Shown here piece by piece: positions 1 to 17,043 of a stretch of 17,043 nt of DNA. The notes below the pieces were generated by a model that was given only the letters and a program-made list of their open reading frames with translations, was not told the origin of the DNA and made no database searches. Origin of the DNA: Candidatus Heimdallarchaeota archaeon (GTDB lineage: Archaea; Asgardarchaeota; Heimdallarchaeia; JABLTI01); NCBI GenBank assembly GCA_019056785.1, contig DXJV01000096.1, forward strand, positions 1 through 17,043, read 5' to 3'. The translations under genes and the position numbers were made by a program. The number at the start of each line of letters is the position of its first letter. The first letter of the stretch is position 1.

Positions 1-1392
1 GCAATTTGTGGTTTCAATATTTGTATGGCTTTTTACAAGTCACCTGTTATGAGTCTTATTCCAGATATGCTTCCTCAAGATTATCGGAGTCAGGGCTCAG
101 GGGTATTAAATGTTGTTGGTGGCGTTGCCAGCATTACTGGATTAGTGCTCGTTTCAACTCTAATAAAACGCAATAGCCCTCTCTCTTTTTGGGCTTCGTC
201 CTTTATTATGCTAGGGTGCTTGGTGATTCTTTTACTCAGCGTTCGTGAGAAGAAGGAAATCGAGATAGAGAAAAGTGAAGAGAAAATTAATTTCTTTAAA
301 GCAATTAAAAATACTTTCAAAGAGAGCGACCGAACACTTCTCCTAATGTTATTCTCTATTTTCTTTCATACCGCTGGCTATACAGTGGCAGAAACATACA
401 TCAGTCGTTATGCAACAGAGGTTTTGTTATTTGACGAGTCAACTGCAGGTTATATTTTGGCTGCTTTTGTTGCTTTTTCAGTTATTTTAGCACTTCCGGC
501 AGGGTTAATCGGACGAAAGATTGGTGCCTTAAATGCTTGCCTTGTCGGGCTCATCGGTTTTATCATTGCGCTTATTCCGATAACGATTATAAGTTTAAGT
601 TCGATTGATGTCTTGCGTAACCTTTTAACGCTGAACACTTATACTCCACCATATTTTGAATGGACAACTCCGGTCTATTTATTCTTAGTCTGTTTATTGG
701 GCTTTAGTTGGTTGGTACTGTCTATAAATGCAATTGTTGTTATCTGGAACATGGCACCAAAGCGAAAAACAGCTACCTATACTAGCTATTTCTATGTTTT
801 CCTTCATCTCGCAGCAATCATAAGTCCATTTCTTGCAGGAGGGATTTTTGATGCTTTTGGTGTTTTCTTTAAAAATCATGGCTTAACTGATCGGTCTGGA
901 CTAGAGTTAATGTTTGTTTACATTGCTATATGTATGATTGTTTCTCTCGTTCTTGTGATTTTTGTGAAAAGTTTACGGACGAAGAAATTGCGGGAGATAA
1001 AAGATACAGATGAATATGTCCTCCGTCGACTTGATGAAAAGGAATATCCTTTGTTGTTTTTACCCATGTTACTTTTCGGTTTCGGCCTTCGCGAAGAAAG
1101 GGCCTTAATGGAGCTCCGGAGACAGCGGTTGAGAGAAAAACGTCGTATTAAACAAGAAATCCGACGTTTGAAACGTGAATTACGCCAATTAAAAAAACAA
1201 GTTCTTATTGGTGATATAAGTGAAGACCTTCGACAGCAGCTTGAAACTATTCGCGAATTACGTTTAACTGATAAAGTATTGAAAAAAGAATACCAAGAGA
1301 AACGACAAGAATTACTGGATGAAATTTTGAAAAAGAAAATGATCAAACATGTAGAAAAACAGGCCGAAAAAGAAAGCGAAAAAGAAAAATAA
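1..1392 (+). CDS. MFS transporter (MalT/SUC/SLC45-like sugar transporter), 5'-truncated by window edge, with charged coiled-coil C-terminal extension
   Basis: Frame is open from base 1 (AICGFNICMAFYKSPVMSLIPD...), so the Met at 25 is internal. Has MFS TM4-TM12 pattern, the 'P...L.PD..P...RS.G.G..N..GG' motif and 'LPAGLIGRKIG' loop. About 110-aa K/R/E-rich tail follows the last TM. Confidence 0.85.
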   Translation, partial: AICGFNICMAFYKSPVMSLIPDMLPQDYRSQGSGVLNVVGGVASITGLVLVSTLIKRNSPLSFWASSFIMLGCLVILLLSVREKKEIEIEKSEEKINFFKAIKNTFKESDRTLLLMLFSIFFHTAGYTVAETYISRYATEVLLFDESTAGYILAAFVAFSVILALPAGLIGRKIGALNACLVGLIGFIIALIPITIISLSSIDVLRNLLTLNTYTPPYFEWTTPVYLFLVCLLGFSWLVLSINAIVVIWNMAPKRKTATYTSYFYVFLHLAAIISPFLAGGIFDAFGVFFKNHGLTDRSGLELMFVYIAICMIVSLVLVIFVKSLRTKKLREIKDTDEYVLRRLDEKEYPLLFLPMLLFGFGLREERALMELRRQRLREKRRIKQEIRRLKRELRQLKKQVLIGDISEDLRQQLETIRELRLTDKVLKKEYQEKRQELLDEILKKKMIKHVEKQAEKESEKEK

Positions 1393-1413
1393 CTAACAAA
1401 GTTGATATCGTAA

Positions 1414-3120
1414 ATGCCCGAAATAAAATAATACTCTCTCACTTTTGAACAGCTTGGGTTTTTTTAGGATTAACCTTTCGTGGATTGTTTATTCAATTTA
1501 TGCCCCAATTTTTTTGGGTAATAATCTACAGCCACTTTTAGGTAATATTTAGTTGCTAAATACCATTATTGGGATCATTATGGTTTTAGATAATATTACA
1601 GCAATTATCATTCAACCAATTATCGGTAATCTCTCTAATTGGATTTGGATTCGCAAACTTAGTCGACGTATGCCTTTTTTAATAATTGGGATTCCTTTTG
1701 CTGCACTCTTTCTTGGTCTTATTGGAACCTTTGAGGAAATGTTTGTTTTGCTTTTGGTGGCAATATGTGGATTCAATATCTAAATGGCGTTCTATAATGC
1801 TCCTGCGATAAGCCTTTTGCCGAACTTTTTACCAGAAGAGAAGATGAGCTATGGTAACAGTATTCTTAATGCCATTGGTGGTCTGGCAAATATTGTTGGG
1901 CTGTTGTTATCTGCATTTCTCTATGTCATTAACCATCAGCTTGCTTTTTGGATCATGGCAATAATAATGATTATCTGCTTATTTATTCTCATTATTTTTA
2001 TCAGAGAAAAAAAAGAAGGACAATCGTCTTTACCAAAAGAACGATATGGTTTATTGTTTACGATAAAAAAGTCTTTCAAGAGAAAAATATTCTCCTCCTC
2101 CTTTTGCTATTTGTTGTCTTCATTCATAATGCCGCCTATCAAATTGCCCAGACTTTTTTCAGTAGTTATGCAGAGGAGCTTTTGCATTTTCCAGCGGAAA
2201 AATCAGCTACTATTCTTGGTATTTTCGTAATCTTTCAAATTGTTCTTTCACTTTTCGGAGGTATTTTAACGAAGTATATTGGTGTGACAAACTTTTTAAT
2301 TCCTGGTTCTCTTCTCTTTCTGGGTGGATTTCCTCCCTTAAGTGTTATTAGTTGTCTTTCGCCCGATTTTTTTGGTCGTGTTATTACTCTCAATAACGGG
2401 CTGTTTGGCTCATGGCAATTCTATTTCTATTTTCTAGCGATTTTAGTTATGGCTTTTAGTTGGCTCTTATTGTTCATGAATCTTTTATTGGTTATTTGGA
2501 ATATCGCTCCCCAGCAAAATATCGGAATGTTTACTGCTTTCTACTATGTCTTTTGGAATTTGGCAGCAATTCTAAGCCCTCTTCTTGCCGGCGGCTTTTT
2601 TGATTTAATAGGTTATTTAACAAGGATAAATGGTTTACAAACATTGTTTCTTTTGATCAGTGCCATCTATCTTGTTGCTTTACTAATTTTATTCATAATC
2701 CGGTGTAAACAGATTAAAGTCTTTCATAAAAAATATATATGATGAATCTTTTCTTGAGCAACAAATTATCTCTTGAGAACTGCCAATACGCTATTTATTA
2801 TTCTTCCTGTTCTCTGGACAGCAAAGAAAGGCTGAATTCAAGGATTTGAAAATACGACAGCAAGAAATTAAAAAAGAACAGAAAAAAGAGCTCAAAAATT
2901 TCAAAGCAGAATTTGCCATCATTAAAAATAAAATTCAAACAGAAGCACGAAAAATTCGGCGGCAAAAGATAAGAGAAAAAAGGCTAATTTAAAGCTCTAG
3001 AAAAAAGAACTTCGTGAAAATGTGAAAGCGTTTAAAAATGCCATTTTAAAAGAGCAAGTGAAAAATTTGCTGGAAAAAAGAATAGAAAAGAGAGAAAAAC
3101 CATTTATCGATACTCGATAA
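1414..3120 (+). pseudogene. Degraded tandem paralog of the upstream MFS transporter (includes ORF fragments 1553-1783, 1784-2230, 1948-2742)
   Basis: Manual reconstruction gives MPEIK*YSLTF..LGFF/RINLSWIVYSIYAPIFL...GNI*LLNTIIGIIMVLDN...QPIIGNLS...RRMPF...AICGFNI*MAFYNAP...TIKK/VFQEKN...LAAILSPLLAGGFFD.../DESFLEQQIIS*ELPIRYLLFFLFSG...coiled coil. In-frame stops at 1429, 1550, 1781, 2774 and 2998. Frameshifts near 1459-1466, 2065-2070, 2728-2740 and 2976-2981. Confidence 0.85.
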
Positions 3121-4357
3121 TCTCTTTCTCTCGTATTGGAAAGCCTTGAAATTCTAATCGCAGGATGCCTATAAATTCGCTGAAAATTTTCAAACTATTG
3201 ACAACAATGTGGAAATAAACTATCACTTTCAAAACTGTCAAACCAATGTTGGGGTCGAAGGTCCAATTGAAGTCAAAGAGAACATTTAGCTTTTCAACTA
3301 ACAGTTCAAAGACATTCAGCACTTGTGTCGTATATGGCCCAAATCCAAGCACCGACTGTAGTAAGACGAGGAGTAAGGGGATTTTTACTGCAATAGGAAA
3401 GACTTTCAAAAACATTAAACCTTGTTGTGGTCGAACAATCCTACCAATAATGGATTTGAGGATTTTAATTATCCCTGTAGTGACTATTGTCCCTCCATAG
3501 GCAAAAAGCCACCAGTTAAGTGGATAGTAAGTTGGCTGTGAAATAAATTCGAATACCGGCAAAAAGACTAGAATCATCATTGCTATACCAACAAATAATT
3601 CAAAGATGCCATTTGAAATTGTTTGTTTTCCTGAATATTCTCGATATCTAACAACTCGTTTCGGTTTTTCTTTTATTTCGTTTGATTGAGGTATTGTTGG
3701 TTGCTTTTCTACTCTTGAAACTGGTTTTACATTTGTAGAGCTTTCTGAAAGGATCTTGACTTTGGGTTCTTCTTCTATACTCGTTAGTTCTCTTTTTGCT
3801 TTATCAGTTGAAGTTTTTTCGGTAGAAGTTTGTTTCTTCTGAAATAGAGTTGGCAGTCGCGATGATAGTGTTTGCAAATCTTCAGGATAATACCCTTCGA
3901 GTGACAAGTAAACGAATAAGAGAGTAATGAGTATAATTGTAATCGTTGCGCTAATGGTTAACCCAGAAAAGAATCTTCTGCCTGCGACACCTGTTCCAAT
4001 ATTAAAGAAGGCCCCAATAACATTTAAAAAGAATTGCGCCACTAACGTAATTATTAGAACCCGGGTGTAGAGTGGGAAAAGCTCTTCTGTGACATAAACT
4101 TTCGGTTTCCCTCGCCGTTTATATTCTTTTGCGATTTCCTCAGGTTCACCCATTTGTTGAATTGCTTGTGTAAGCTCCTTCTCAGTGACCTCTCTTTTAC
4201 CGGCAATTTCAGTTGCCTTGTCCCAAATATGATTCTGTAATTCCTCGAGTATTTCTTCAACTTCTTTTTTGTTATTCCGTAACCAGAAAGGTAATTTATT
4301 TTCAACTGCTCTAAGAAATTCTTTTACAATCTTTTCGTTTTCAGATTCTATAGCCAT
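3104..4357 (-). CDS. HAAS-domain (DUF1700-like N-terminus) multi-pass membrane protein, probable PadR partner
   Basis: N-terminus 'VKEFLRAVENKLP...EEILEELQNHIWDKA...AIQQMGEPEEIAKEY' is the typical HAAS three-helix signature. About 6 TM segments follow. The gene lies 16 nt downstream of padR. Confidence 0.8.
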   Translation of the reverse strand: MAIESENEKIVKEFLRAVENKLPFWLRNNKKEVEEILEELQNHIWDKATEIAGKREVTEKELTQAIQQMGEPEEIAKEYKRRGKPKVYVTEELFPLYTRVLIITLVAQFFLNVIGAFFNIGTGVAGRRFFSGLTISATITIILITLLFVYLSLEGYYPEDLQTLSSRLPTLFQKKQTSTEKTSTDKAKRELTSIEEEPKVKILSESSTNVKPVSRVEKQPTIPQSNEIKEKPKRVVRYREYSGKQTISNGIFELFVGIAMMILVFLPVFEFISQPTYYPLNWWLFAYGGTIVTTGIIKILKSIIGRIVRPQQGLMFLKVFPIAVKIPLLLVLLQSVLGFGPYTTQVLNVFELLVEKLNVLFDFNWTFDPNIGLTVLKVIVYFHIVVNSLKIFSEFIGILRLEFQGFPIREKEIIEYR

Positions 4358-4373
4358 TTTTTCACTTCCTTTT

Positions 4374-4892
4374 TTATTTTAAATCTTCAATGTAAAGACC
4401 ACATACATCGCAGAATTTTGTAATTTCATCTAATTTTATTTTGTTTGCACAATTTGGGCAATAGATGTACTTATCTTTGGGCAAGGTGATTTTGTACTCC
4501 ATCAACGGTGCCATTGCCTCGAGTAATCTCGAAAAAAAGCCTGTCATGTGATTGAGTAATTTTTGCCCTTCTGCAGTCAACTGGTAATATTTCCTAATGC
4601 GTCCATCGATCTCCTTTTTTTCTGATTTGAGAACACCGTCTTTCTCCATCTTCCGTAAAAGAGGATAAATTGTCCCTTCCTCAACAATAAGTAAATTCTT
4701 TGTCTCACTTTCCAATGTTTTAATGATTTGATAGCCATATAACCCTGTTTGAGGATGTTGTTGGATGATCTGTAATATCGTCACCGTTGAAATTCCCCGC
4801 AATAACTCTGATTCAAATCCTTCCACGTACGTCCGGTAATGTTCTTTTGCAATTAATGCTTCTTCTCTAAATGTCCTCACTTTTTTTAACAT
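4374..4892 (-). CDS. PadR-family transcriptional regulator with C-terminal zinc ribbon
   Basis: PadR wHTH motifs 'ELLRG...IL', 'YGYQI', 'EGTIYPLLRKMEKDG', 'RKYYQLTAEG'. C-terminal CPNC-x12-CDVC. Confidence 0.92.
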   Translation of the reverse strand: MLKKVRTFREEALIAKEHYRTYVEGFESELLRGISTVTILQIIQQHPQTGLYGYQIIKTLESETKNLLIVEEGTIYPLLRKMEKDGVLKSEKKEIDGRIRKYYQLTAEGQKLLNHMTGFFSRLLEAMAPLMEYKITLPKDKYIYCPNCANKIKLDEITKFCDVCGLYIEDLK

Positions 4893-4937
4893 TACTTCTT
4901 TCCGCCTTTTTAGTAGTCGTTTAATATTATTTGCCGA

Positions 4938-4976
4938 ATACTATGAATAATACAGTATCCCTCTTTTTAAATATTT
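4938..4976 (-). promoter_or_regulatory. Putative PadR operator (imperfect inverted repeat ATACT-N11-AGTAT, 4938-4958) next to a TATA-like box of the padR operon
   Basis: Sequence atactatgaataatacagtat. Minus-strand TATTTAAAAA at about 4973-4964 lies just upstream of it relative to padR. Confidence 0.5.
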
Positions 4977-5066
4977 AGAATTTTAAAAGGAAGTGAATGG
5001 AAGGAAAGAAAGCTTTAAAACGTTAAAAAAGGACTAAAATAATCAGCTGTAAAGGAGAAAAAAAAC

Positions 5067-6383
5067 TTGTCTGTTGAAAGAAAATTCGAAAAGATAACGT
5101 TGTCTGCCTCGATTCTTGCAATGATTGGAACCGTGTTAATAATTATCGGAATAGGTATTGGTTCGGCTTTTTTGACTGATGTCCGGTTATTAGCATTAAT
5201 TGTCCTTATTTTGGGAATTTTTGTTATTAGTGTGATTACTTTCATTGGTTCGTTGCCTGCAAATCGTTTTCAATTTACAGATGAACGTCCGGCGCTTCTC
5301 GCTTTTCTTGCATTATTCTTTGCACCTTTTACTCTTATTTCAAATTACACGACTCCCTTGTATTTACTCATTAAATTAGTCATTGGAGAGAGTTCCATTT
5401 CTCTTCTTCATTACTTTACCTTGGGTGGAATTTTCCTCATGACTATTTCGTTCTTGTTATTTGTCTGGGTTTTCTTCTGGAAACTCCCGGAACGGCGCCC
5501 CACACTGGAAGAGAATTCTGAGCTCCCGATTGCCAAAGCCCTTGCTCAAATTACTGGCTTTTTAACGATGGTTGCGATCATTGGTGTGATAATTGGTTTG
5601 TTGTTCCCGGTGTCTGATTCAAGAAATAGTCTCTTGCAAACTAGCTTAGGTGCTGTTGTCAGTCCAAGTGCCCTGGCTTTTCTCTTTTATCTTCTAATGA
5701 TTTTTACAACAGCCTTATTTGTGTTTATTAGTCCTTTTGAAAAAGTTGCTATACCCCGTACAGATTTAGCTTTACTTTTCTTACTCTTTACGTTTTTAGC
5801 CCTACCGGGATATGAACCATTAACTGCTTCTACTTCAATTTGGAGTTCGCCTGTGTATAAGCTCTTAGAATATGGTCTTCTTGTCTTTTCTGACATGAAT
5901 ATTTTTGGTTGGATTTTACTAACAAGTGTTCTCTTGAATGTTTTTGCATTATTGCTTGGTGTCCTTACTTTCTTCTTGAAGATTAGTGCTTTTGTCTCAG
6001 AAGAAGTTGTACGAACCCCTCGAAGAAGGCAAAAACCTCTTGTCCAATCGGAATCCACACAAGGAAGTGAAACACTTGGCACACTGGCTCAGACATTGGC
6101 TAGTTCAACTACAACCCAAACCCCACCAACTACAGTACCAACCAGCCAATCTGTCCCCACCTCGAGTGGACCGCCATCTGCTATAGCAAAACCAGTTAGT
6201 GGTGCTCCACCCAGTGCTTCCCCCCCTGCTTTTGGCATTTCAACTCAGCCGGCAACAAAACAAACAACACCTACAAAAACGCTTGAAAGGCAAAAGCCAA
6301 CATGCCCATTCTGTGGTAAAGAATTAACATTTATTGAACAATACCAACGATGGTATTGCTATAATTGCAGTCAATACGTTTAA
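5067..6383 (+). CDS. Hypothetical 8-TM membrane protein with Pro/Ser/Thr-rich linker and C-terminal zinc ribbon
   Basis: TTG start preceded by AAGGAG. About 8 hydrophobic segments, then a low-complexity PST region, ending CPFCGKELTFIEQYQRWYCYNCSQYV. Confidence 0.8.
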   Translation: MSVERKFEKITLSASILAMIGTVLIIIGIGIGSAFLTDVRLLALIVLILGIFVISVITFIGSLPANRFQFTDERPALLAFLALFFAPFTLISNYTTPLYLLIKLVIGESSISLLHYFTLGGIFLMTISFLLFVWVFFWKLPERRPTLEENSELPIAKALAQITGFLTMVAIIGVIIGLLFPVSDSRNSLLQTSLGAVVSPSALAFLFYLLMIFTTALFVFISPFEKVAIPRTDLALLFLLFTFLALPGYEPLTASTSIWSSPVYKLLEYGLLVFSDMNIFGWILLTSVLLNVFALLLGVLTFFLKISAFVSEEVVRTPRRRQKPLVQSESTQGSETLGTLAQTLASSTTTQTPPTTVPTSQSVPTSSGPPSAIAKPVSGAPPSASPPAFGISTQPATKQTTPTKTLERQKPTCPFCGKELTFIEQYQRWYCYNCSQYV

Positions 6384-6396
6384 GGAAGCAATACCA

Positions 6397-6413
6397 TTCT
6401 TCTTTTTTCTCTT
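6397..6413 (+). terminator. Oligo-pyrimidine/T-rich archaeal-type terminator candidate
   Basis: ttcttcttttttctctt lies just after the stop at 6383, between convergent genes. Confidence 0.4.
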
Positions 6414-6414
6414 G

Positions 6415-6669
6415 TTATTTCTTAATGAGTTTATATTTTGCTAAAAGAATTGGTTTACAGCGAGAAAGCCTGGGACAACCAGTGCATTTCAGTTCTTCAC
6501 AAAATGTTGCTTCTTTTTTAAAATCATCAATCCGTTCAAGATAACCCAATTTTACAAGTTGGTCAAGTAATAAGACGACTGTCCCTTCTTCTATCCCAAG
6601 CTTTCGTGCAATTGTAGCAGTATTCGCATCTCCTCCAGCTCGTAAATACTCGAGAACTTTAGAAAGCAT
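6415..6669 (-). CDS. feoC: FeoC-like winged-helix protein with Fe-S-type cysteine motif
   Basis: 84 aa. wHTH ('IARKLGIEEGTVVLLLDQLVKLGYLER') plus C57-x4-C62-x2-C65-x5-C71, matching the FeoC CX4CXXCX5-8C motif. Last gene of the feoB operon. Confidence 0.8.
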   Translation of the reverse strand: MLSKVLEYLRAGGDANTATIARKLGIEEGTVVLLLDQLVKLGYLERIDDFKKEATFCEELKCTGCPRLSRCKPILLAKYKLIKK

Positions 6670-6713
6670 ATTTATTGTTACTGTTCTTCTTGCTTTTTAA
6701 TTTTCACACAATT

Positions 6714-7481
6714 TTAGAACCATTTCCGCCTTTTTCTCCTTCGATGACCACATAGTGGCCTTCGTCGAAGATGCATTGTCCTGTGGTTATTTTGTTCTAT
6801 TTCTGTCGCTAAACCATCTAAAGCAGGTTGCAGCTTTTCAGGTAGAAGTACTATATGGCGAATGGTTAATAAACGAAAGAGAGGTGTTGTAAAAATGGCT
6901 AAAAGAATTGGCAAATAGAAATAGGTATCAATATGGATTACTTCAGCATTTATTGCTGCTGAAATTAATCCATTTAGAATATCTGCAATAATAACCAAAA
7001 GATAAATAATGCCAAACAGGCTCCCTATGCCTGAGCCAATGATAAGAAATGAATCGGCTTCTTGATTTTTCTTTCTAAAATAATATATTAGTGCCCATAG
7101 CATAACCAGGCTAATAATAATTAAGACAAAAGAGGTTACTTTCAATTGTTGCCAACCGAATATTGCTGTTTTTTGATAAAAACTCCAGCTTTCATTTTCT
7201 TTGAGCCCGAAGAGTACTAAAATGCTTAAAATCCCTCCAACCAAATAAAGGACGGTTAAAATGATTGTTAATCCTATGATTGTTTTGGTTATTCTTGGTC
7301 GATTCAACCGGTCGATTTTTTCTTGTGTGATTATTCTTTTTTTCTTTCTTTCCTTTTTGCAGAGCTGCTTCTTTATGATTGTTACTGAAAGCTCTGGATG
7401 TGCTTCTACTTCTTCCTTTGGAATGGTTTGTTGTTCTTTCTCCGTGTTTTTTTTATTTTCTTGTTTGATTTTTTTATTCAA
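6714..7481 (-). CDS. Hypothetical 4-TM membrane protein within feo operon
   Basis: Starts 12 nt after the feoB stop, with GAGGTGAG RBS-like motif before a TTG. Lys-rich N-terminus, four TMs, His/Arg/Cys-containing basic C-tail. Confidence 0.75.
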   Translation of the reverse strand: MNKKIKQENKKNTEKEQQTIPKEEVEAHPELSVTIIKKQLCKKERKKKRIITQEKIDRLNRPRITKTIIGLTIILTVLYLVGGILSILVLFGLKENESWSFYQKTAIFGWQQLKVTSFVLIIISLVMLWALIYYFRKKNQEADSFLIIGSGIGSLFGIIYLLVIIADILNGLISAAINAEVIHIDTYFYLPILLAIFTTPLFRLLTIRHIVLLPEKLQPALDGLATEIEQNNHRTMHLRRRPLCGHRRRKRRKWF

Positions 7482-7493
7482 CCATTCCTCACC

Positions 7494-9503
7494 TCAAATT
7501 GACACTATAAAACGCACCAGGAAATAGGCTATTGCAGAAAAGGTATATGCTACAGTCATTGTAAATGCCAACGAGAAGAACATCCATTTAGTGCTTCCGG
7601 TTTCTTTCTTTATCACAGCTAATGTTGCCACACAAGGTACATATAAAAGGATAAAGACTAATAAGCCAAAGCCAGCTGCTGGTCCAAGATTGACAAGAGG
7701 ATTACTTGTCAAAGGAGCTGATGGATCGAAATTCAAAAGGGTACTTAATGTTCCAATTATCACCTCTTTTGCAACAAACCCTGAAAGCAATGCTGCACCA
7801 TATTCCCAACTTAGGGGTGTGCCGTCGCTCGTCTTCATCCACCAAAATAGATATGCTACGCCTCGACCAAGATACTCAAGTATCCCAGAAGCATCAAGAA
7901 GGTAGATTGTAATGACAGCAATTAAGATGATGGAGCTTGCTTTCTTAAAGAATTCTTTTGTTTGATTCCACATTTTAATTGCGACGCCTTTTATCGATGG
8001 TCTCGTATAGGGTTGCAATTCAATAATAAGATAAGTATCTCCACCTCGAAACAGAGTCTTCCTAAACAGCCAAGCAAAACTTATGCCAATAATCACTCCT
8101 AAGATATAGAGGCTTAAAGTCACGAGTCCCGCGTAAGCTGGAAAAATACTACCGGCCAGTAAAATAAAGACTGGCAATCTTGCTGAACATGACATAAAGC
8201 TATTGACTAAAATGGCTGTTTTCCGGCTCTGGGGGTTTTTAATTGCACGTGTTGCCATTATCCCTGGCACATTGCAACCAAACCCTAATAACATCGGGAT
8301 TATCGCCTGCCCTTCCAATCCTACTTTGCTCATATACCGATCCATAATGAATGCTACTCTTGAGAGATAGCCTGTGTCTTCTAAGATTGCCAATGCAATA
8401 AACAAGATAATTAAATATGGCACAAAAGAAATGACTGTTCCAAAGCCATTTAACAATGCTCCGACTATGAAATCTGTGATGGGATTTACACCTGTGCCGG
8501 CGCCATCAAGTAAATTCGCAAGATAATAAATTAGATCCCCTAGCTTTGCTATTCCCAGACCAATTAAGTCAACAAGTGGTTTCCCAACAGTAAAGGTTAA
8601 TTGAAAAACACCCCACATAATTGCTAAGAAGATTGGGATGCCGAGAAATCGATTTGTTAATACCTCATCGAGCATATCACTTAGAGCCCACTGCCTCCCA
8701 CGGAAGTCTGTGACGACATCTTTAATAAAGTCCTTGATAAGGTCATATCGAGCATCGACAATTGCAATGACTGCATCGCCTTTGAAATTTTCTCGATTTA
8801 CCGTCTCTATTTTTTCTTTTAATTCATTTTCAGGGATACCACTATCAATTGCTATTTCCCAAGCATACTTGTCATTTTCCAATAAGGAAATAGCAAGCCA
8901 GTTTAATGGGTAGCGTTTTTCAATCCGGGAAGAATAAGGCGCGATTTCGTTTAAAATAACCTGTAAAGCTGCTTCGATATTCCCTTTCCAGATGATTGGC
9001 TTTGGTTTCACAGGGTGATCCAAATTCTCGCAGATGGCATTTTTTAGCTTGGTAATTCCAACCTCTTTTATAGCAATGGTTTCAATGACTGGAATTCCCA
9101 GATTTTCTGAGAGCTTCTTACTATCTATAATGATTCCCTTCCCACGAGCCAAGTCAACCATATTTAATACTGCGAGGAGATTAACGCCTAACTCCATTAA
9201 TTGAACAGTAAGATAGAGGTTGCGTTCCAAGTTCGAGGCATCGAGAACCACAACTACAAGGTCGGGATTTTCTTCGATGATATACTTTCGTGAAACTTCT
9301 TCATCGATTGAGTGTGGACTTAATGAATAAATTCCCGGAAGATCAGTGACTTCAATCTCTCGTCCTTTGAAATGCATCTTTCCCTCTTTTTTTTCTACAG
9401 TGCAGCCGGGAAAATTAGCGATGCGCTGGTTTAGCCCTGTAAGGGCATTAAAGATGACACTTTTTCCTACGTTTGGATTTCCTGCCAGCGCAATTTTTGC
9501 CAT
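7494..9503 (-). CDS. feoB: Ferrous iron transport protein B
   Basis: G1 GNPNVGKS, G2 [13 protein letters not shown]3 DLPG, G4 NMVD. Membrane motifs [41 protein letters not shown] at 9503 preferred over GTG at 9515. Confidence 0.97.
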
Positions 9504-9535
9504 TTTTTTCTTCACTCTTTTTTGATGACCGGCAC

Positions 9536-9557
9536 AAAGTTAGGCATGCCGAACTTT
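9536..9557. promoter_or_regulatory. DtxR/IdeR-family metal-repressor operator candidate
   Basis: 22-bp palindrome AAAGTTAGGCATGCCGAACTTT with one mismatched pair and core TTAGG-N4-CC(G)AA, 32 nt upstream of the feoB ATG. Confidence 0.75.
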
Positions 9558-9568
9558 TAAATTTTTGC
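9555..9568 (-). promoter_or_regulatory. BRE/TATA candidate for feoB operon
   Basis: Minus strand GCAAAAATTTAAAA abuts and overlaps the upstream edge of the palindrome. Confidence 0.5.
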
Positions 9569-9666
9569 AAATAATTGTATGAGGATAACAATTTAAACTT
9601 GTAGTCAATTAATATAATAGTTTCTGAGAAAATAATAAACAAAGAGATTTGCAGGTTAAGATAATA

Positions 9667-10464
9667 ATGAAAGAAGTAAAATTGCTCTCGTGGAATGTTA
9701 ATGGCTTATGGGCTTTAGTAAAGAAGGCAGTAAAAAGTGAGCTGGATTTCTATTCCTGGGTCGAGAAAGAATCGCCAGATATTCTTTGCCTTCAAGAGAC
9801 GAAAGCTACCAAAGAACAAATGCCTAAGAAGTTGCTTGAATTAGCTGGTTATGAGAGTTATTGGAGTGCAGCAGAAAGGAAAGGTTACAGTGGAGTAGTA
9901 ACTTTCACAAAAGACACACCGATACAGGTGAGTTATTCGCTGGGGAAAAAGGAGTTTGATAATGAAGGAAGACACATTATTACGGAATTTCCTAATTTTA
10001 TTTTACTTAATGTTTATTTTCCAAATGGAAAAAAGAATCAAGAGCGACTCCGGTTTAAAATGGAGTACTATGATGCTTTTTTGACCGTTATTGAAAATTA
10101 TCGAAAGAAAGGCAAATCAATCATTTTTTGTGGGGATGTGAATACCGCTCATAGAGAAATTGATCTTTCCCATCCAAAAGCCAATGAAAAAATCTCTGGA
10201 TTTCTTCCTATAGAGCGAGCATGGATTGATAAATTACTCGAGTTAGGGTATATAGATACTTTCCGCTATTTTCATCCAAACAAAACAGAGCAATATACCT
10301 GGTGGTCCATGCGGAATATCGGTGCACGTGAGCGTAATGTTGGCTGGCGCCTTGATTACTTTTTTGTTAGTAATGATCTGGAAAAGTATCTTAGCAATGC
10401 TTTTATCATGCCGGAGGTTTACGGCTCTGATCACTGCCCGGTGGGGTTGCAGCTGAAGTTTTAG
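9667..10464 (+). CDS. xth: Exodeoxyribonuclease III / AP endonuclease
   Basis: Motifs SWNVNG, LCLQETK, GYSGV, EGR, NVYFPNG, CGDVNTAH, DTFR, YTWW, GWRLDYF, SDHCP. ATG at 9667 preferred over TTG at 9649. Confidence 0.96.
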   Translation: MKEVKLLSWNVNGLWALVKKAVKSELDFYSWVEKESPDILCLQETKATKEQMPKKLLELAGYESYWSAAERKGYSGVVTFTKDTPIQVSYSLGKKEFDNEGRHIITEFPNFILLNVYFPNGKKNQERLRFKMEYYDAFLTVIENYRKKGKSIIFCGDVNTAHREIDLSHPKANEKISGFLPIERAWIDKLLELGYIDTFRYFHPNKTEQYTWWSMRNIGARERNVGWRLDYFFVSNDLEKYLSNAFIMPEVYGSDHCPVGLQLKF

Positions 10465-10506
10465 AGTTGATGAATTATAGAGTGAATTGCAGTAGGATGA
10501 ATTTTA

Positions 10507-11304
10507 ATGAAAGATTTAACAGTTGCCCTCTATCAAATGGATGTTCAAACAGGAAAGAAAGCAACAAATCTTGAGAAAGTTGTAAAAGTCATTCAAAAAC
10601 ACCAAACAGGACAAATCGAGTTATTGGTCCTTCCTGAGCTTTTTACTACAGGGTTTGCTTACGATCATTTTCCAAATTTAGCTGAAGTGGAAGATGAAAG
10701 CCCAACACTGCAACAGCTGGAATTATTGGCGAGGAAGAATGAGCTGGGCTTAGCAGGCACGATCTTAACTACAGACACAAAGCATGAACAATACTTCAAT
10801 CTTGGATTTATTATTGCTCCTGAAGAGGGTGTCATTTATAAGTATCATAAAATACACTTATGGGGACGTGAAAAAGACTTTTTCACTCCAAGGATAACCA
10901 TTCCAAAACCGATTTCTTTTGCCGGAAAGGCTAACATCGCTCTTGCTACCTGCTATGATTTGCGTTTTCCTGAAGTTTATCGCAAGTTTGCGTTTAGCGG
11001 TGCTGAGGTGTTAATCACACCTGCGGCATGGCCAAAGCAACGAGTCCAGCATTTCCATCTTCTCTCTCGTGCTCGAGCATTGGAAAATACTTGCTATCAC
11101 ATAGCGGTCAACCGTTTTGGTGAAGAACAAACTGATTTCATAGTCTCCTACAATGGAGGTTCCGGCATTTTTTCACCACTTGGTGAAGAATTAGTTAAGA
11201 CGCCTCCAGAAGAAAGCTTCAAAGTTTACAAACTGTCCGCACATCAACTATCTATTGCGAGGAAAACTATCCCTGTTCTAGCTGATGCTAAAATGCGGTT
11301 CTAA
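10507..11304 (+). CDS. Carbon-nitrogen hydrolase (nitrilase superfamily, Nit/YafV/MtnU-like amidase)
   Basis: Catalytic E-K-C triad in LPELFTTG, YHKIHL, TCYDLRFPE. Also PAAWP and ARALEN motifs. Confidence 0.9.
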   Translation: MKDLTVALYQMDVQTGKKATNLEKVVKVIQKHQTGQIELLVLPELFTTGFAYDHFPNLAEVEDESPTLQQLELLARKNELGLAGTILTTDTKHEQYFNLGFIIAPEEGVIYKYHKIHLWGREKDFFTPRITIPKPISFAGKANIALATCYDLRFPEVYRKFAFSGAEVLITPAAWPKQRVQHFHLLSRARALENTCYHIAVNRFGEEQTDFIVSYNGGSGIFSPLGEELVKTPPEESFKVYKLSAHQLSIARKTIPVLADAKMRF

Positions 11305-11324
11305 AGTACTGTTAGTAAAGGACG

Positions 11325-12224
11325 TCAAATTACCCCCAGAACCTCTTTTATCAATTTTGCTGCAGCGAAAGAGGAAATGCTGGAAAAATCGTATTTTGGA
11401 CATAATTCAACAACATCAAAAGCGACAAAATTAATGCCTTGAAGTGCTTGTAAGAAGAGTAGCACGTCTCTAGTTGTCAGCCCAGCGGGTTCAGGATTAC
11501 CAACGCCAGGAGCAAAAGCCGGATCTAAAACATCCATGTCAATTGAGAGATAGACTCCGTCCAGTTTTTTTGGCAAAGCTGCTTTTATTCTCTCTGCGAT
11601 TGCTTGTGCACCACTACTAAAAACATCTTGTGTTGTAATAGTGGTGATTCCGAGGTTGTTAGCATATTCTTGCTGTTCAGGTGTACTTGCACGAATCCCG
11701 ACTTGAAAAATTGCTTTAGGCTCAATATTCGTTTCATCTATGATGCGTTTAACTACACAAGCATGAGAATATTTGTCATTGTTATAATTATCATATAAAT
11801 CAGGATGCGCATCAAGATAAATCAATCCCATGCGCAAATCTTGGATTTTTTTAAGAGAAACAAAGGTAAAATACGTTGAAAGATGGTCTCCTCCGAGGAA
11901 AAGAAAACGCATGCCATATTTATTGTGTTTAACAATTTTGTTGAAAACGAGTTTTTTACTCTCCAGAGGATCAAGCTCTGTAATAGGAGCATCGCCAATG
12001 TCAAATATCTGCCAAGTCTGTTGAATATTCCTACCGGTCTCAGTGAAAGGATTATAAAGCGTATTTGAAGTGGCATAGCGGATGTATTGCGGAGCGTCGC
12101 GGGCACCATCCCGGAAAGAGGAGGCACTATCACGAGGAATGCCTAAAACGGAAAGGTTGGCAAAATTGATGTTATTTGTTGTTGCACCAAAAAAAGAGTT
12201 ATAGTCAGAACCTGCTTCTGTCAT
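11325..12224 (-). CDS. speB: Agmatinase / ureohydrolase (arginase family)
   Basis: GGDH, DAHPDL, SHAC, GIR, SIDMDVLDPAFAPG, DVVE motifs intact. Start at 12224 is supported by a TATA-like TTTTAAA about 25 nt upstream. Exact substrate not provable from sequence. Confidence 0.85.
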   Translation of the reverse strand: MTEAGSDYNSFFGATTNNINFANLSVLGIPRDSASSFRDGARDAPQYIRYATSNTLYNPFTETGRNIQQTWQIFDIGDAPITELDPLESKKLVFNKIVKHNKYGMRFLFLGGDHLSTYFTFVSLKKIQDLRMGLIYLDAHPDLYDNYNNDKYSHACVVKRIIDETNIEPKAIFQVGIRASTPEQQEYANNLGITTITTQDVFSSGAQAIAERIKAALPKKLDGVYLSIDMDVLDPAFAPGVGNPEPAGLTTRDVLLFLQALQGINFVAFDVVELCPKYDFSSISSFAAAKLIKEVLGVI

Positions 12225-12430
12225 AATTTCTATGTGGGCTTTTTTCTCTTTAAAATTTGTGAGGAAAAAAGCATCAAAAAGTCCTTTTTTTCGGGATTTG
12301 ATGAGCAAATTGAGCTTAGAAACTATAGAAAAATGGTCTTTTTGTATTAATGCATTAAAACGTATGTTTAAATAGTATTGAAGAGAATATATTACTTGAA
12401 ACAGAAGGGGTTTCAGGGTCTTTATTCTGA

Positions 12431-13147
12431 ATGGCTTGTTTAATGTACGCTAGGAGTAAAAGAATGACAATAGGAAGACTCGAAAAATGGACACACGATC
12501 ATGAGTCGGAAATCAAGTACTTCAAACGGCTCCTCCGAAGATCACCTAAGAACTATTCTTTGTTGAACTTCCTAGCGAACGCTCTGTACAAAAAAGCAGA
12601 ATATGAAGAAGCAATTTATTGTTGGAAACGATTACTCCGAAAACAAGCGGTAAAAGATATCCACAGAATTTTATCAAAAATTGCCCTTGCCTATGAATCG
12701 CTAGGCGAGATTGAATTTGCCTTTTACTATTATGGCGAAGCTCTTAAGGAAGCTCCAAAAACGCCTTCCTCACTTATCGGTAAATATGGGCAAATGGCCT
12801 ATCTTCTCGAAAATTATGATGATGCTCTTGCTGCCTTTAAAGAAATGGTGGAAATTGATCCTGATAATGATGTTGCCTGGCATAATCTGGGCTTAACATA
12901 TTACAATAAAGGTTTCATAGCTGAAGCAATAGATTGTCTCAAGATTGCTGTCTCGCTAAATGAGAAAGCCTCAGATAGTTTGTATGTCTTAGCAACAATC
13001 TATGCTGAAGAATATCAAAGTGATAACGCTTTGGAAGCCTTAGAGCATGCTCTCACCCTCGATCCATCCTTACGAGAACAAGCATCAAAGGAAGAATCTT
13101 TTTCTACGCTTACAAATTTAGCACTCTTTCAATACTTAATTTTATAA
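12431..13147 (+). CDS. Tetratricopeptide repeat protein
   Basis: About 5 TPR-like units (e.g. AWHNLGLTYYNKG..EAIDCLKIAV) and a terminal 'ALTLDPSLREQASKEESFSTL' capping motif. Start could be 12464. Confidence 0.88.
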   Translation: MACLMYARSKRMTIGRLEKWTHDHESEIKYFKRLLRRSPKNYSLLNFLANALYKKAEYEEAIYCWKRLLRKQAVKDIHRILSKIALAYESLGEIEFAFYYYGEALKEAPKTPSSLIGKYGQMAYLLENYDDALAAFKEMVEIDPDNDVAWHNLGLTYYNKGFIAEAIDCLKIAVSLNEKASDSLYVLATIYAEEYQSDNALEALEHALTLDPSLREQASKEESFSTLTNLALFQYLIL

Positions 13148-13148
13148 T

Positions 13149-13162
13149 AAAAAAAGAAAAAA
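13149..13162 (-). terminator. Oligo-T terminator candidate
   Basis: Minus strand TTTTTTCTTTTTTT downstream of the stop at 13187. Confidence 0.4.
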
Positions 13163-13186
13163 GAGATTATTAATCTCTCAAAAACC

Positions 13187-13456
13187 TTAAGGCGTTAAAT
13201 TCCAAAATGCCCAATGTCCACCGTAAAGTACAAAGACGAGTATAACGTAGATAATAAAGCCAAGTGGTATAAGACAAATGGCAATCCAGCCAAGAATCCG
13301 GCCGATTTTTCCACTGCCTTCGCCGGCAGTTCCTTTGGAACTATATCCAAAGACAAGAGCAAGAATGGGTCCGATGCAAGGTAAAATATTCAAACATCCC
13401 AAAATGCCCATTATTAAGGATACTGTTCCAGCTGTAGTATCGCTTGGATCTGTCAT
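13187..13456 (-). CDS. Small DUF4190-like membrane protein
   Basis: Pattern 'SLIMGILG...IGPILALVFGY...GKIGRILGWIAI' is typical of DUF4190 two-segment membrane proteins. GGAG upstream of the ATG. Confidence 0.7.
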   Translation of the reverse strand: MTDPSDTTAGTVSLIMGILGCLNILPCIGPILALVFGYSSKGTAGEGSGKIGRILGWIAICLIPLGFIIYVILVFVLYGGHWAFWNLTP

Positions 13457-13550
13457 TATAATAACTCCATTTTTGTTTTTATAATACTGTAAAAATTAGT
13501 TATTTCTAAGTTAATAAATTTTTTCAAGTGAAGATAGGGGCACTTTTTAT

Positions 13551-14306
13551 TTAGAATAAAATTGAAAGGCATGTTAAAGCACCGGCGCATTTTTCAAACT
13601 CTGTAGTATCAATAGGCCAAACTTCGAATCCTGCTTCTCGAACGATTTCTTGCGTTTTTGGGAAGGCTTTTGCCATGAGGACAACACCATTTACCGCTAA
13701 AGCATTTGCTGCATATTTCTCAAACTTTGGGACAATGAGTTTCTGATAGTCTTTTAAAACCGGATGATTTGCGAATTGTTCTGTTACCAGCATAGTGTTG
13801 TTTCCCAAGTAACTAATATGGCTTTTTAAATGGAGGATCTCTTCATTTGTTAGAGTGATGACCGGTGTTCGCAGAGCTTCTTGTAATTGCCGTGCACCGT
13901 TGATTGTTGTTCTCTGTGTAATCCCGCAGATTAGCTTATTCTCGAGTTGAATGACATCCCCTCCCTCGATGGTTGCCGGCGGCTGAGCCTGTATAACGAG
14001 AAATTTTCCCTTTAAAATCTGCATTACGGCCTCTTCTTCTCCCCACCGGCTCGGAAGAGCTAACCGAGTGATAAAAGCTCTTCTCTTATAAACAACGGCA
14101 GTATCTTCTACAAAGCACCCATCAGGATAGCGGTCATCACGTGGCAATCTAATGAGCTCTATTCCCAGTTCTTCTAAGGCTTTACAATAGTCTTGATGTT
14201 GCTTCCGAGCAAGACCAATATTTAGATATTTTTTCAAAGGATGATCAGAGATACAACCATCAAGTGTTGGTCCAGGTTCTCGCGTAATAGCAAATTGATA
14301 TCTCAT
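13551..14306 (-). CDS. Dimethylarginine dimethylaminohydrolase (DDAH) / amidinotransferase-family protein
   Basis: ARKQH..Y, PDGCFVEDTAVV, SR.GE, EGGDV, HLKS, YAAN and C-terminal GALTCLS with the catalytic Cys. Confidence 0.88.
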   Translation of the reverse strand: MRYQFAITREPGPTLDGCISDHPLKKYLNIGLARKQHQDYCKALEELGIELIRLPRDDRYPDGCFVEDTAVVYKRRAFITRLALPSRWGEEEAVMQILKGKFLVIQAQPPATIEGGDVIQLENKLICGITQRTTINGARQLQEALRTPVITLTNEEILHLKSHISYLGNNTMLVTEQFANHPVLKDYQKLIVPKFEKYAANALAVNGVVLMAKAFPKTQEIVREAGFEVWPIDTTEFEKCAGALTCLSILF

Positions 14307-14330
14307 AAAGAGAATATCTTTGTTTTGTCT

Positions 14331-14338
14331 TTTAAAAA
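14331..14338 (-). promoter_or_regulatory. TATA-box candidate for a leaderless DDAH transcript
   Basis: Minus strand TTTTTAAA ends about 25 nt upstream of the ATG at 14306, with no RBS-like motif in between. Confidence 0.45.
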
Positions 14339-14369
14339 GTTATTTCAAAAAGGACTTCACAATTGTCTA

Positions 14370-15536
14370 TTATTTTTTCAATGAGACTAACCATTCGAGT
14401 AGATTAAACACTTTGATTTTTGATTCAACTTTATCTAAGTCATCAAAGTCAAAATCTTCTGCATCGTAATCTATTTCATCACGTGCAATGGTTGTCCCTC
14501 CTTTCTCAAGTGTAAATTCACATGTAGGGCAAAATGTGAGGAGAATTGTTGCTCTGGTTGCTAAAGCCTCGCGAATGCGTTTTTTCGAAATTTCAATTGC
14601 GAGTTCTGGGTAAGACATTAACAAACCTGAGCCTGCGCCACAACAATATGAGTCCAAACCAGAATTTTCCATCTCAACAAGTTCGACATTTTTCACACTA
14701 CGGATTATTTCTCGCGGCTCGTCGATAATGCCGCCAAACCGCCCTAAGTGGCAAGGATCATGCCAAGTAACTTTAAGAGGTTCCTTACTCTCAAATTTCA
14801 GTTCGCCTTTTTTCACCATTTCATATAGTTTTGTTATAAAATGAATTGGTTCTGCTTTTATTTCATCAGCATATTCTTCTTTTAGCATTCGAAAACAAGT
14901 GGGACAACCTGTGACAATTTCTTTGGCTTTTGTCTTTTTAAGAATCTTAACAACTTCACTTTTCTTTTCCTTAAATTGTTGAATATATCCCGCATCAAAG
15001 AGGAGGTTGTTACAACAAGGCTCCTCCTCTCCCAGATAATTTACATCCCCTAACAATTCGGCCATATGAATCAATGTTTGATGGTCATTTAATCCATAAG
15101 TACAACCACCAAAGAGTAATGTTTTGCTGTTAGGATTGCTTTTAATTTCTGGAATTGCACGTTTCTTAGCATTTTGTTTGAAGGGGTTTCCAAACTCATT
15201 AAGAGAGCCCACAGCATCATCAAGATATTTGTCTGTTAATCCTTGTTCAACCATGTCTTCTTTAAAATCTCGAAAAATAGTGGTGTTCTCCAGTGCACAA
15301 TTTTTCTCGCAATAGCCACAAAGTAAGCAGGAATTGGCCAGCTTAACAACTTCAGGCGTAATGGTGATCGCCCCCTCCATAATTCCTCGTGCAACGAGGG
15401 TTCTTCCTCGAGATGAATACGTCTCAAGAAGCATCACTTCGTAGACAGGACAGCGCTGGATACAGAACCCACAACGCGTTCTATTGCATGTGTAAATTTC
15501 TTCCCGGTGTTTTTTGGTGTTTTTTAACTCTGCCAT
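14370..15536 (-). CDS. GlcF/HdrD-like Fe-S oxidoreductase (2x ferredoxin-type motifs + 2 CCG domains)
   Basis: CNRTRCGFCIQRCP, SSRGR, CLLCGYCEKNC. CCG domains FGGC..CCNN..GCPTC and HDPCHLGR..CCGAG..CPTC. ATG at 15536 follows an AGGTGA RBS; the alternative GTG at 15548 overlaps the upstream stop. Confidence 0.9.
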   Translation of the reverse strand: MAELKNTKKHREEIYTCNRTRCGFCIQRCPVYEVMLLETYSSRGRTLVARGIMEGAITITPEVVKLANSCLLCGYCEKNCALENTTIFRDFKEDMVEQGLTDKYLDDAVGSLNEFGNPFKQNAKKRAIPEIKSNPNSKTLLFGGCTYGLNDHQTLIHMAELLGDVNYLGEEEPCCNNLLFDAGYIQQFKEKKSEVVKILKKTKAKEIVTGCPTCFRMLKEEYADEIKAEPIHFITKLYEMVKKGELKFESKEPLKVTWHDPCHLGRFGGIIDEPREIIRSVKNVELVEMENSGLDSYCCGAGSGLLMSYPELAIEISKKRIREALATRATILLTFCPTCEFTLEKGGTTIARDEIDYDAEDFDFDDLDKVESKIKVFNLLEWLVSLKK

Positions 15537-15544
15537 TTTTTTGC

Positions 15545-17038
15545 TCACCTTTCGTAGCCAAACATCTCAATGGGAAATTTCTTCCCGGGATTAATGATGC
15601 CATTCGGATCAAATGCTTTCTTAATTTTAAACATGTATTCATAGGCTTCTTGATGTTCTACCTCACCAATCCATGGTGTTTTGAATTCCGAGTCACCAAT
15701 ATAGGTAGCACTTGTTCCTTCCATAGCGATGGCCATTTCACTCATTTCACGAACATATTTGTAAAAGCCTTGAACATTTTCAGGGTCTTTATCATCTACA
15801 AAAACAGCAAAAGAGATGCTGGGACTTAATCGATTAGGCCGTTCATGATAGACACACATGCCTAATATTTGTTGACCGTGTTTCTTAGCAATCTCAAGGT
15901 AGCGTTTATAGGCATCCTCAATACGGCCTATGGGGATCCCGCAATCAACAGCACCAAATTTTTTTTCTCGCTGGGAGTCAGGCCATTTTTGTTTAAAAGG
16001 TGTGAAATTGACCGTATATTTTGAAGCCCACCAGCCATCAGTAATTTCAACTTCTTTGACTACTTGCCCATGGTTTCTCTGGCAAATCTTCAGTGCATAA
16101 TCTCGAGAGAATTTAACTACTTTGTTTTTTTCTTCGGCGCTAGCAAAGGAAATACCCAATAATGCTTCTGCCCAGTCAGGGATCTCAGGTTCATGTCCAT
16201 ATTTTTCTTTATAGGAATGCGTGTAAAATTTCAGTCTTTGTCGGCAATTTATATGGGCCGATTCCAAGGCTAAGCCAGCATGGATGATGTCTCGAATAGC
16301 ATGCATTGCATCTCTCAAAGATGGAAAGACAATCATGTCCACCATACGTGTCTTTTGAACGGGGATGAGTTTTACAGTTGCTTCCACAATCACGCCTAAG
16401 GTTCCCTCAGAACCCACAAGTAACCAATTCAATTGATAACCACTATTGGAACAGAGCGCCTTTCGACGACCCAGCCGGACAATCTTTCCTTCACCAGTGA
16501 CAATTACGGCATTCGTTAAATGATCAACCATTCTTCCATGGCGAATGCCAAAAGTTGAGTCATTATTGCATGCAATTGCAGCACCAACGGTAGAGGCTTT
16601 TTTACTTTCAGGTTCTTGTGGAAAATAAAGCCCATACTGCTTTAAAGCTTGATTGAGGTCCCAAATAGTAATTCCAGTTTGCACTGTGGCAGTCATATTA
16701 TCAACATCGACTTCTAAAATCTTGTTCATACCTTTCGTTTCTAAAATGATCCCACCATATAGCGGAACAGCACCACCACCCATGCCGGTTCCACCTGCAA
16801 AAGGAGTGACAGGAATTCGATGCTTGTTTGCTATCTCAATAATTTTTGCCACTTGTTCTTTTGTTCTGGGACGAGCAACTACATCTGGAAGGTGAATATC
16901 TTTATCTTCTCGAGGCGACCAGTCGCGGGAATAGGCCATACGATGAATCTCTTCTGTAAAAATAACATCCTTCCCCACAGCTGCAGTTAATTCTCCCAAA
17001 ATCTCTGGAGTTACTTTGCCAAACTTCATCCGAGCCAA
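15545..17038 (-). CDS. FAD-binding oxidoreductase (GlcD / D-2-hydroxyacid dehydrogenase / VAO-PCMH family)
   Basis: PDVVARP, GGTGMGGGAVP, MNKILEVD, STVGAAIACN, GSEGTLGVI, IKKAFDPNGIINPGK. The ORF is complete because an in-frame TAG lies at 17041-17039. Start is TTG 17038 or ATG 17029. Confidence 0.92.
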   Translation of the reverse strand: MARMKFGKVTPEILGELTAAVGKDVIFTEEIHRMAYSRDWSPREDKDIHLPDVVARPRTKEQVAKIIEIANKHRIPVTPFAGGTGMGGGAVPLYGGIILETKGMNKILEVDVDNMTATVQTGITIWDLNQALKQYGLYFPQEPESKKASTVGAAIACNNDSTFGIRHGRMVDHLTNAVIVTGEGKIVRLGRRKALCSNSGYQLNWLLVGSEGTLGVIVEATVKLIPVQKTRMVDMIVFPSLRDAMHAIRDIIHAGLALESAHINCRQRLKFYTHSYKEKYGHEPEIPDWAEALLGISFASAEEKNKVVKFSRDYALKICQRNHGQVVKEVEITDGWWASKYTVNFTPFKQKWPDSQREKKFGAVDCGIPIGRIEDAYKRYLEIAKKHGQQILGMCVYHERPNRLSPSISFAVFVDDKDPENVQGFYKYVREMSEMAIAMEGTSATYIGDSEFKTPWIGEVEHQEAYEYMFKIKKAFDPNGIINPGKKFPIEMFGYER

Positions 17039-17043
17039 CTACC

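Follow-up and report, generated by a model that had tools for sequence, protein, structure and literature searches.

An MJ0565-family membrane protein encoded between feoB and a FeoC-like gene is a probable partner of one archaeal FeoB subtype

The window studied here is the 17,043-nucleotide (nt) contig DXJV01000096.1 (positions 1 to 17,043, forward strand) of an archaeal assembly deposited as Candidatus Heimdallarchaeota archaeon (GCA_019056785.1), and our subject is a group of three co-oriented minus-strand open reading frames (ORFs) spanning 6415-9515, in which a gene for a membrane protein with four transmembrane (TM) helices stands between the iron transporter gene feoB and a gene for a FeoC-like winged-helix protein. 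We consider it likely, with a probability of roughly 70%, that these genes form the core of an archaeal-type ferrous-iron uptake operon and that the four-TM protein, which belongs to the family PF27307, is an auxiliary membrane subunit dedicated to one FeoB subtype. Since its family sits directly after one subtype of feoB in distantly related archaea, the protein is probably an additional part of the transporter.

The first gene, feoB (7494-9515, minus strand), is followed after 12 nt by the membrane protein gene (6714-7481, minus strand; a long form of the family with 255 amino acids (aa)) and, after a further gap of 44 nt, by the FeoC-like gene (6415-6669, minus strand; 84 aa). The membrane protein gene starts with a TTG codon that has GAGGTGAGG just ahead of it. 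The feoB product matched TIGR00437 over positions 1-594 of 594 with 576.8 bits (cut-off 315.65) and contains the Pfam domains FeoB_N (the G domain), FeoB_Cyto, two Gate domains and FeoB_C. Its longest ORF opens at GTG 9515; the ATG at 9503, which yields the usual FeoB N-terminus right before the G1 motif, is probably the true start. An earlier sequence-only reading of the window had described the same three co-oriented genes with these gaps and had placed first a feoB without a fused SH3/FeoA domain; the ORF coordinates confirm the former, and the Pfam scan, which found no FeoA/SH3 domain in the feoB product, the latter.

The association of the membrane protein with FeoB was followed in other archaea, first among the relatives of the window in the class Bathyarchaeia, where feoB was located directly upstream and on the same strand in 15/15 related loci. 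Ten of the 11 genomes of the window's own family (one genome among these relatives bears the NCBI name Bathyarchaeia) encode a homolog with 40-46% identity between feoB and the FeoC-like gene, adjoining xth, the gene of exodeoxyribonuclease III, and the same order of feoB and membrane gene recurs in four more distant loci of the class. In more distant members of the class the partner is a short form of 166-184 aa, and the genes follow the order feoA(-feoA)-feoB-membrane gene-winged helix-turn-helix (wHTH) gene. Both operon types (L036, L043) occur together in genome G008, plus an orphan feoA: one operon consists of an xth-adjacent feoB, a long-form partner and feoC, without feoA, and the other of feoA-feoB, a short partner of 168 aa and a wHTH gene.

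The linkage extends to the phylum of Methanosarcina, in a sample of which the membrane gene profile matched 77 of 301 genomes. Here feoB was found directly upstream and on the same strand in 69 of the 70 places inspected (30/30, then 39/40), the remaining place being cut by a contig end. In 40 of the loci the retrieved stretch reached far enough to contain an upstream feoA, and one was detected in 34 of these. Methanosarcina sp. T3, for instance, has the order feoA-feoA-feoB-151 aa-FeoC with one junction of 13 nt and one overlapping, and its FeoC reaches 56.6 bits to PF09012. Starts of the membrane gene often overlap or abut the neighboring genes. The sequence-only reading had proposed that the inserted membrane protein is a Feo component without a published role and that its homologs should be linked to feoB; the linkage was observed in both samples and, together with the overlapping or abutting starts, makes this proposal very probably correct.

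Two further observations were made on feo loci of the same phylum. Three genomes (G341, G150 and G251; loci L114, L116 and L120) contain a tandem feoB-partner-feoB-partner arrangement, in which the second partner is far more diverged (expectation value (E) ~1e-6). In many other loci (L068-L078, L107-L110 and others) the match to FeoB is broken into two neighboring parts, one covering the G/helical region and one the membrane region, a sign that feoB may be split or carry frame changes in this lineage.

The partner is restricted to one type of FeoB. FeoB is present in 243 of the 301 sampled genomes and the membrane gene in 77, so that most FeoBs have no such partner; 20 feoB loci not linked to the membrane gene gave no match to its profile even at E 1 and showed no hydrophobic frame of 140-170 aa downstream. 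In a quick maximum-likelihood tree, read without a root, a branch of length 1.54, which received a Shimodaira-Hasegawa-like approximate likelihood ratio test (SH-aLRT) support of 100, divides 28 linked FeoBs of both phyla from the 20 unlinked ones, and the FeoB of the window falls within the clade of the linked FeoBs. Moreover, 34 of the 36 FeoB columns that discriminate this clade lie in residues 281-643, which is the membrane domain, and several of them are Trp or Phe; W297, F360, W566 and W640 are examples of residues specific to the clade. Adjacency across phyla, the overlap of start and stop codons, the restriction to one clade and the position of the distinguishing residues in the membrane domain together argue for a dedicated partner of this FeoB subtype.

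The same data bear on a different view of the protein, namely that it is co-regulated with FeoB and related to iron, and yet physically independent of the transporter, for instance as an envelope factor, a small channel or a safety valve akin to an exporter, and does not bind FeoB. Contact with FeoB is indeed inferred, the predicted fold is a generic tetraspan-like bundle, and the acidic outward loops described below could bind cations on their own. However, such a protein would be expected to occur also alone or next to other types of FeoB, which was not seen. The near-absolute adjacency of its gene to feoB across phyla also speaks against this view, as does its confinement to one FeoB clade that has diverged strongly and is set apart chiefly by residues of the membrane domain. 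We therefore regard an independent protein as unlikely.

The family to which the membrane protein belongs is already catalogued. A database protein 97% identical to it bears the precomputed label PF27307 "MJ0565", so that the gene does not represent a new sequence family. PF27307 ("MJ0565 integral membrane domain") is part of Pfam 38.1 and takes its name from MJ0565 of Methanocaldococcus jannaschii, the neighbor of which, MJ0566, we take to be the FeoB of that organism. The nearest cluster in the ESM Atlas carries the same name (86% PF27307, score 0.87) and serves as a lead only. Profiles built from short members outside the Bathyarchaeia (Methanosarcina, Asgard archaea and metagenomes) matched the window protein with E 1.3e-14 and 2.9e-17, hhalign of distant short members gave a probability of 96.3%, and the four TM helices align with those of short members of 146-170 aa. 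Membership thus has both the family match and the four-TM core of about 150 aa behind it. A scan against NCBIfam and a Pfam library without the PF27307 model returned only noise below the thresholds (DUF7937, TspO, FtsX). The profile search of 1.8 billion representatives yielded 52 relatives at E <=0.001; the named members are all archaeal (Bathyarchaeia, Methanosarcina, Methanosarcinaceae, Heimdallarchaeia, Odinarchaeia and Asgardarchaeia) and are all annotated as hypothetical. No function of PF27307 and no link to Feo was found in the searchable papers, none of which names MJ0565, PF27307 or MJ0566; the family is thus catalogued by sequence, and we came across no account connecting it to Feo.

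The long form of the window begins with a K/E-rich N-terminal tail (about 64 aa) that carries a conserved HPEL motif, continues with the core at residues 60-215 and ends in an Arg/His-rich C-terminal tail of 43 aa. An AlphaFold2 model based on an alignment of 18 sequences places the TM helices at residues 62-92, 114-136, 140-178 and 189-211 with a predicted local distance difference test (pLDDT) score of 80-90, the tails being of low confidence. Lys and Arg cluster in the N-terminal tail (20 K/R), in the loop between TM2 and TM3 and in the C-terminal tail (12 K/R and 3 His), and loops 1 and 3 range from neutral to acidic, with a net acidic charge; from this distribution and the positive-inside rule, both termini are predicted to be cytoplasmic (N-in/C-in). 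Residues conserved throughout the family are mostly Gly, Pro and aromatics, which favors a role in packing or scaffolding over catalysis or metal ligation, and no conserved Cys was found in the family alignment. An acidic, outward-facing EDFxDW loop is retained in most short forms and could attract cations. A search of the model against the PDB with Foldseek gave no match at E 0.001 or better. The possibility that the protein is a split piece or a duplicate of the FeoB membrane domain was considered as well and ruled out, since hhalign gave it a probability of 0.2%.

Several points speak against the interpretation as a FeoB subunit. The alignments show no obvious metal ligands common to the whole family, and the EDFxDW loop is degenerate in just the clade of the window's protein. 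A wide structure search with VIA-align retrieved generic four-helix bundles only, with Z <=10.1, the noise level for helical proteins, and no fusion of FeoB with an MJ0565 protein was found among longer proteins, although this search was weak. Most FeoBs, including other archaeal ones, function without such a partner. Finally, the FeoB tree came from a quick search, and its unlinked FeoBs were picked by hand among the lower-scoring matches.

The third gene of the operon suggests a further possibility. The FeoC-like protein scored 24.9 bits against PF09012 (cut-off 21), and wHTH models of the MarR type gave similar scores; its tail contains a C-x4-C-x2-C-x5-C motif, candidate iron-sulfur ligands. 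All its relatives have the CxxC, and those at the level of the family retain the whole four-Cys motif. The assignment to FeoC is supported by the score above the PF09012 gathering threshold, by the position downstream of feoB and by the Cys cluster. Wherever a FeoC-like gene is present, the membrane gene stands between it and feoB, and start codons frequently overlap the preceding stop codons; the FeoC-like protein itself retains a CxxC-centered Cys cluster. On this basis the four-TM protein might be imagined as a membrane tether or signal relay that holds or releases this putatively Fe-S-bearing regulator and does not act on FeoB. In the phylum of Methanosarcina, however, a FeoC-like gene was detected after only 29 of the 70 membrane genes (by tblastn, a lower bound), and many loci end without one; a membrane gene without FeoC accordingly occurs, and one without feoB does not. 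A tether for FeoC thus appears quite improbable to us, and a partner of FeoB remains the preferred explanation.

The absence of feoA from the locus was the other striking feature of the window and had been taken by the sequence-only reading as the mark of a non-canonical system without FeoA. For the locus itself the statement stands: no feoA lies anywhere in it, and the spacer between feoB and the divergent xth (9649-10464; TIGR00633, 306 bits) is only 133 nt long and, as had been stated, leaves no room for one. The locus has the FeoB with G domain and Gate domains that characterizes a Feo system, and lacks a FeoA encoded with FeoB or fused to it. For the genome the statement fails. In this genome, which is 82.5% complete, the scan for feoA detected one FeoA gene, a stand-alone feoA on contig C65 (61277-61610, minus strand; L001:1489-1851) with 67.7 bits to PF04023. 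Nine of 12 family genomes yielded a stand-alone feoA; the completeness of the other three is 64-84%. The ~430-aa frame just upstream of the orphan gene may be a GH57-type glycosidase.

Both loci appear to be under common control. Upstream of feoB, a TATA-like box TTTAAAA (9555..9561, minus strand), the putative feoB promoter, is followed by the operator-like palindrome GTTCGGCATGCCTAAC (9539..9554, minus strand; wider form 9536-9557), which is of the DtxR/IdeR half-site type TTAGG/CCTAA. The palindrome is kept in 10/10 relatives examined, with the consensus GTTNGG-N4-CCTAAC, and an A/T box stands ahead of it at the same position in all ten, as it does at the genome's two other operator sites; the putative DtxR-like operator of the sequence-only reading is supported in this way. 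Exact GTTNGGNNNNCCTAAC sites occur three times in the 2.87-Mb genome, whereas about 0.3 would be expected by chance according to a rough estimate: at the feoB promoter, at the promoter of the orphan feoA and at a cluster of NifX-like genes. The orphan feoA has the same layout as feoB, with TTTATAA ahead of the operator, and because the operator lies inside the longest ORF call, the true start of feoA is probably the ATG behind it (MVRKK...). The third copy, a perfect palindrome GTTAGGAATACCTAAC after TTTATAA (contig C51:33395-33410; L089:1501-1516), precedes genes for a basic protein of 116 aa and two NifX/NifB-like proteins (PF02579), with a divergent DUF134 gene; this cluster probably belongs to the same iron regulon. 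A candidate repressor of the DtxR type, 148 aa long, is encoded on contig C31 (PF01325, 71.6 bits; PF02742, 56.6 bits), so that both a conserved palindrome at iron-uptake promoters and a DtxR-family gene, the predicted features of a DtxR/IdeR-type regulon, are present. The orphan feoA and the exact operator sites imply that the Feo system of this organism is split over two loci with a common predicted operator and is not devoid of FeoA.

These results also decide how much weight can be given to the suggestion, made by the sequence-only reading, that the membrane protein or its tails replace FeoA. The long tails (the HPEL-containing N-terminal tail and the Arg/His-rich C-terminal tail) are found only in operons without feoA, and short forms always occur with feoA, even within G008; this correlation is suggestive. 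Nevertheless, it comes from one clade and counts as a single evolutionary event, nearly every other operon that encodes the core family is accompanied by one or two feoA genes, contrary to the expected co-occurrence of the homologs with a lack of feoA, and the present genome has its orphan feoA behind a feoB-type operator, as 9 of 12 family genomes have an orphan feoA of their own. A substitute for FeoA is therefore very unlikely, and the idea of a Feo type without feoA has to be given up as well.

Returning to the auxiliary subunit of FeoB, we can outline how it may work. The four-TM protein would pack against the membrane domain of FeoB and might affect its assembly, stability or gating, with its N- and C-termini facing the cytoplasm and two short, net acidic loops facing outward. 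In this family of Bathyarchaeia, feoA has been relocated to a separate locus and retains the same control by a TATA-like box and a palindrome, and since this arrangement is common to both loci, a DtxR-type repressor would switch feoA, feoB, the MJ0565-like gene and feoC together. The basic, His-containing cytoplasmic tails specific to the lineage may provide a further contact for regulation or metal sensing. With even odds, in our estimate, the generalization could go further: the MJ0565 family might be the fourth subunit of an ancient archaeal Feo type, present in Bathyarchaeia, relatives of Methanosarcina, Asgard archaea and Methanocaldococcus, that binds to the membrane domain of FeoB and is needed for Fe(II) import or gates it, and the tails of one family might couple it to regulation after feoA had left the operon.

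On the other side of the operon, a convergent ORF of 438 aa (window 5067-6383, plus strand) showed no significant family match; it lies on the opposite strand and outside the feo operon.

A better knowledge of this family would be of value, since the transport mechanism of FeoB and the roles of its small partners are still unsettled. If our interpretation is true, structural and genetic studies would gain a defined new component and one deeply diverged clade of FeoB in which to examine it. Methanosarcina and Methanococcus, which are genetically tractable methanogens with a very high demand for iron, would lend themselves as hosts. Annotation would gain too, as hundreds of feoB-adjacent "hypothetical proteins" could be given a name, and for the window itself a system without FeoA is replaced by a split feo regulon joined by one predicted operator.

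Compared with what is known, the membrane protein shares with the other members of PF27307 the sequence family and the four-TM core of about 150 aa, and differs from the short ones by the cytoplasmic N- and C-terminal tails of its 255-aa long form and by its degenerate EDFxDW outer loop. In the most thorough survey of Feo systems, the sole membrane element reported downstream of feoB is a short Cys-rich PF12669 peptide, and no protein with four TM helices is mentioned (PMC8749426); the searchable literature on elements downstream of feoB likewise offered this peptide only. Both are small membrane proteins encoded directly downstream of feoB and candidate accessories of the transporter (PMC8749426); however, the PF12669 product is a mere short peptide, has a Cys-rich motif and is in some cases fused to FeoB, whereas the window protein spans the membrane four times, lacks a conserved Cys and gave no match to PF12669 at E 0.01. 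Work on iron uptake in methanogens and other archaea considers FeoAB alone (PMC8351635, PMC10846266). In its form, a compact four-helix bundle, the protein resembles the tetraspan auxiliary subunits MS4A/Fc-epsilon-RI beta, Cav gamma, DUOXA1, NACHO and Kei1, which partner a larger membrane protein; with Z of 8-10, within the noise range, and identities of 5-15%, the likeness is an analogy of form and no evidence of homology.

The control region has in common with repression by DtxR, IdeR and MDR1 the TTAGG/CCTAA-like inverted repeat just downstream of a TATA-like box and the gene of a DtxR-family protein; here, the half-sites of the putative operator stand 4 nt apart in a 16-bp core, and the 148-aa candidate repressor lacks the SH3-like third domain. 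In bacteria FeoA always accompanies FeoB, no FeoB+FeoC system without FeoA being recorded, and FeoC occurs in a few Euryarchaeota (PMC8749426). With the canonical FeoABC system of Escherichia coli, Klebsiella and Vibrio, the system described here shares a FeoB with G and Gate domains, a small FeoC-type winged-helix protein with C-x4-C-x2-C-x5-C encoded downstream, and a FeoA in the genome; it is distinguished from that system by the additional four-TM gene between feoB and feoC and by a feoA that is unlinked to both.

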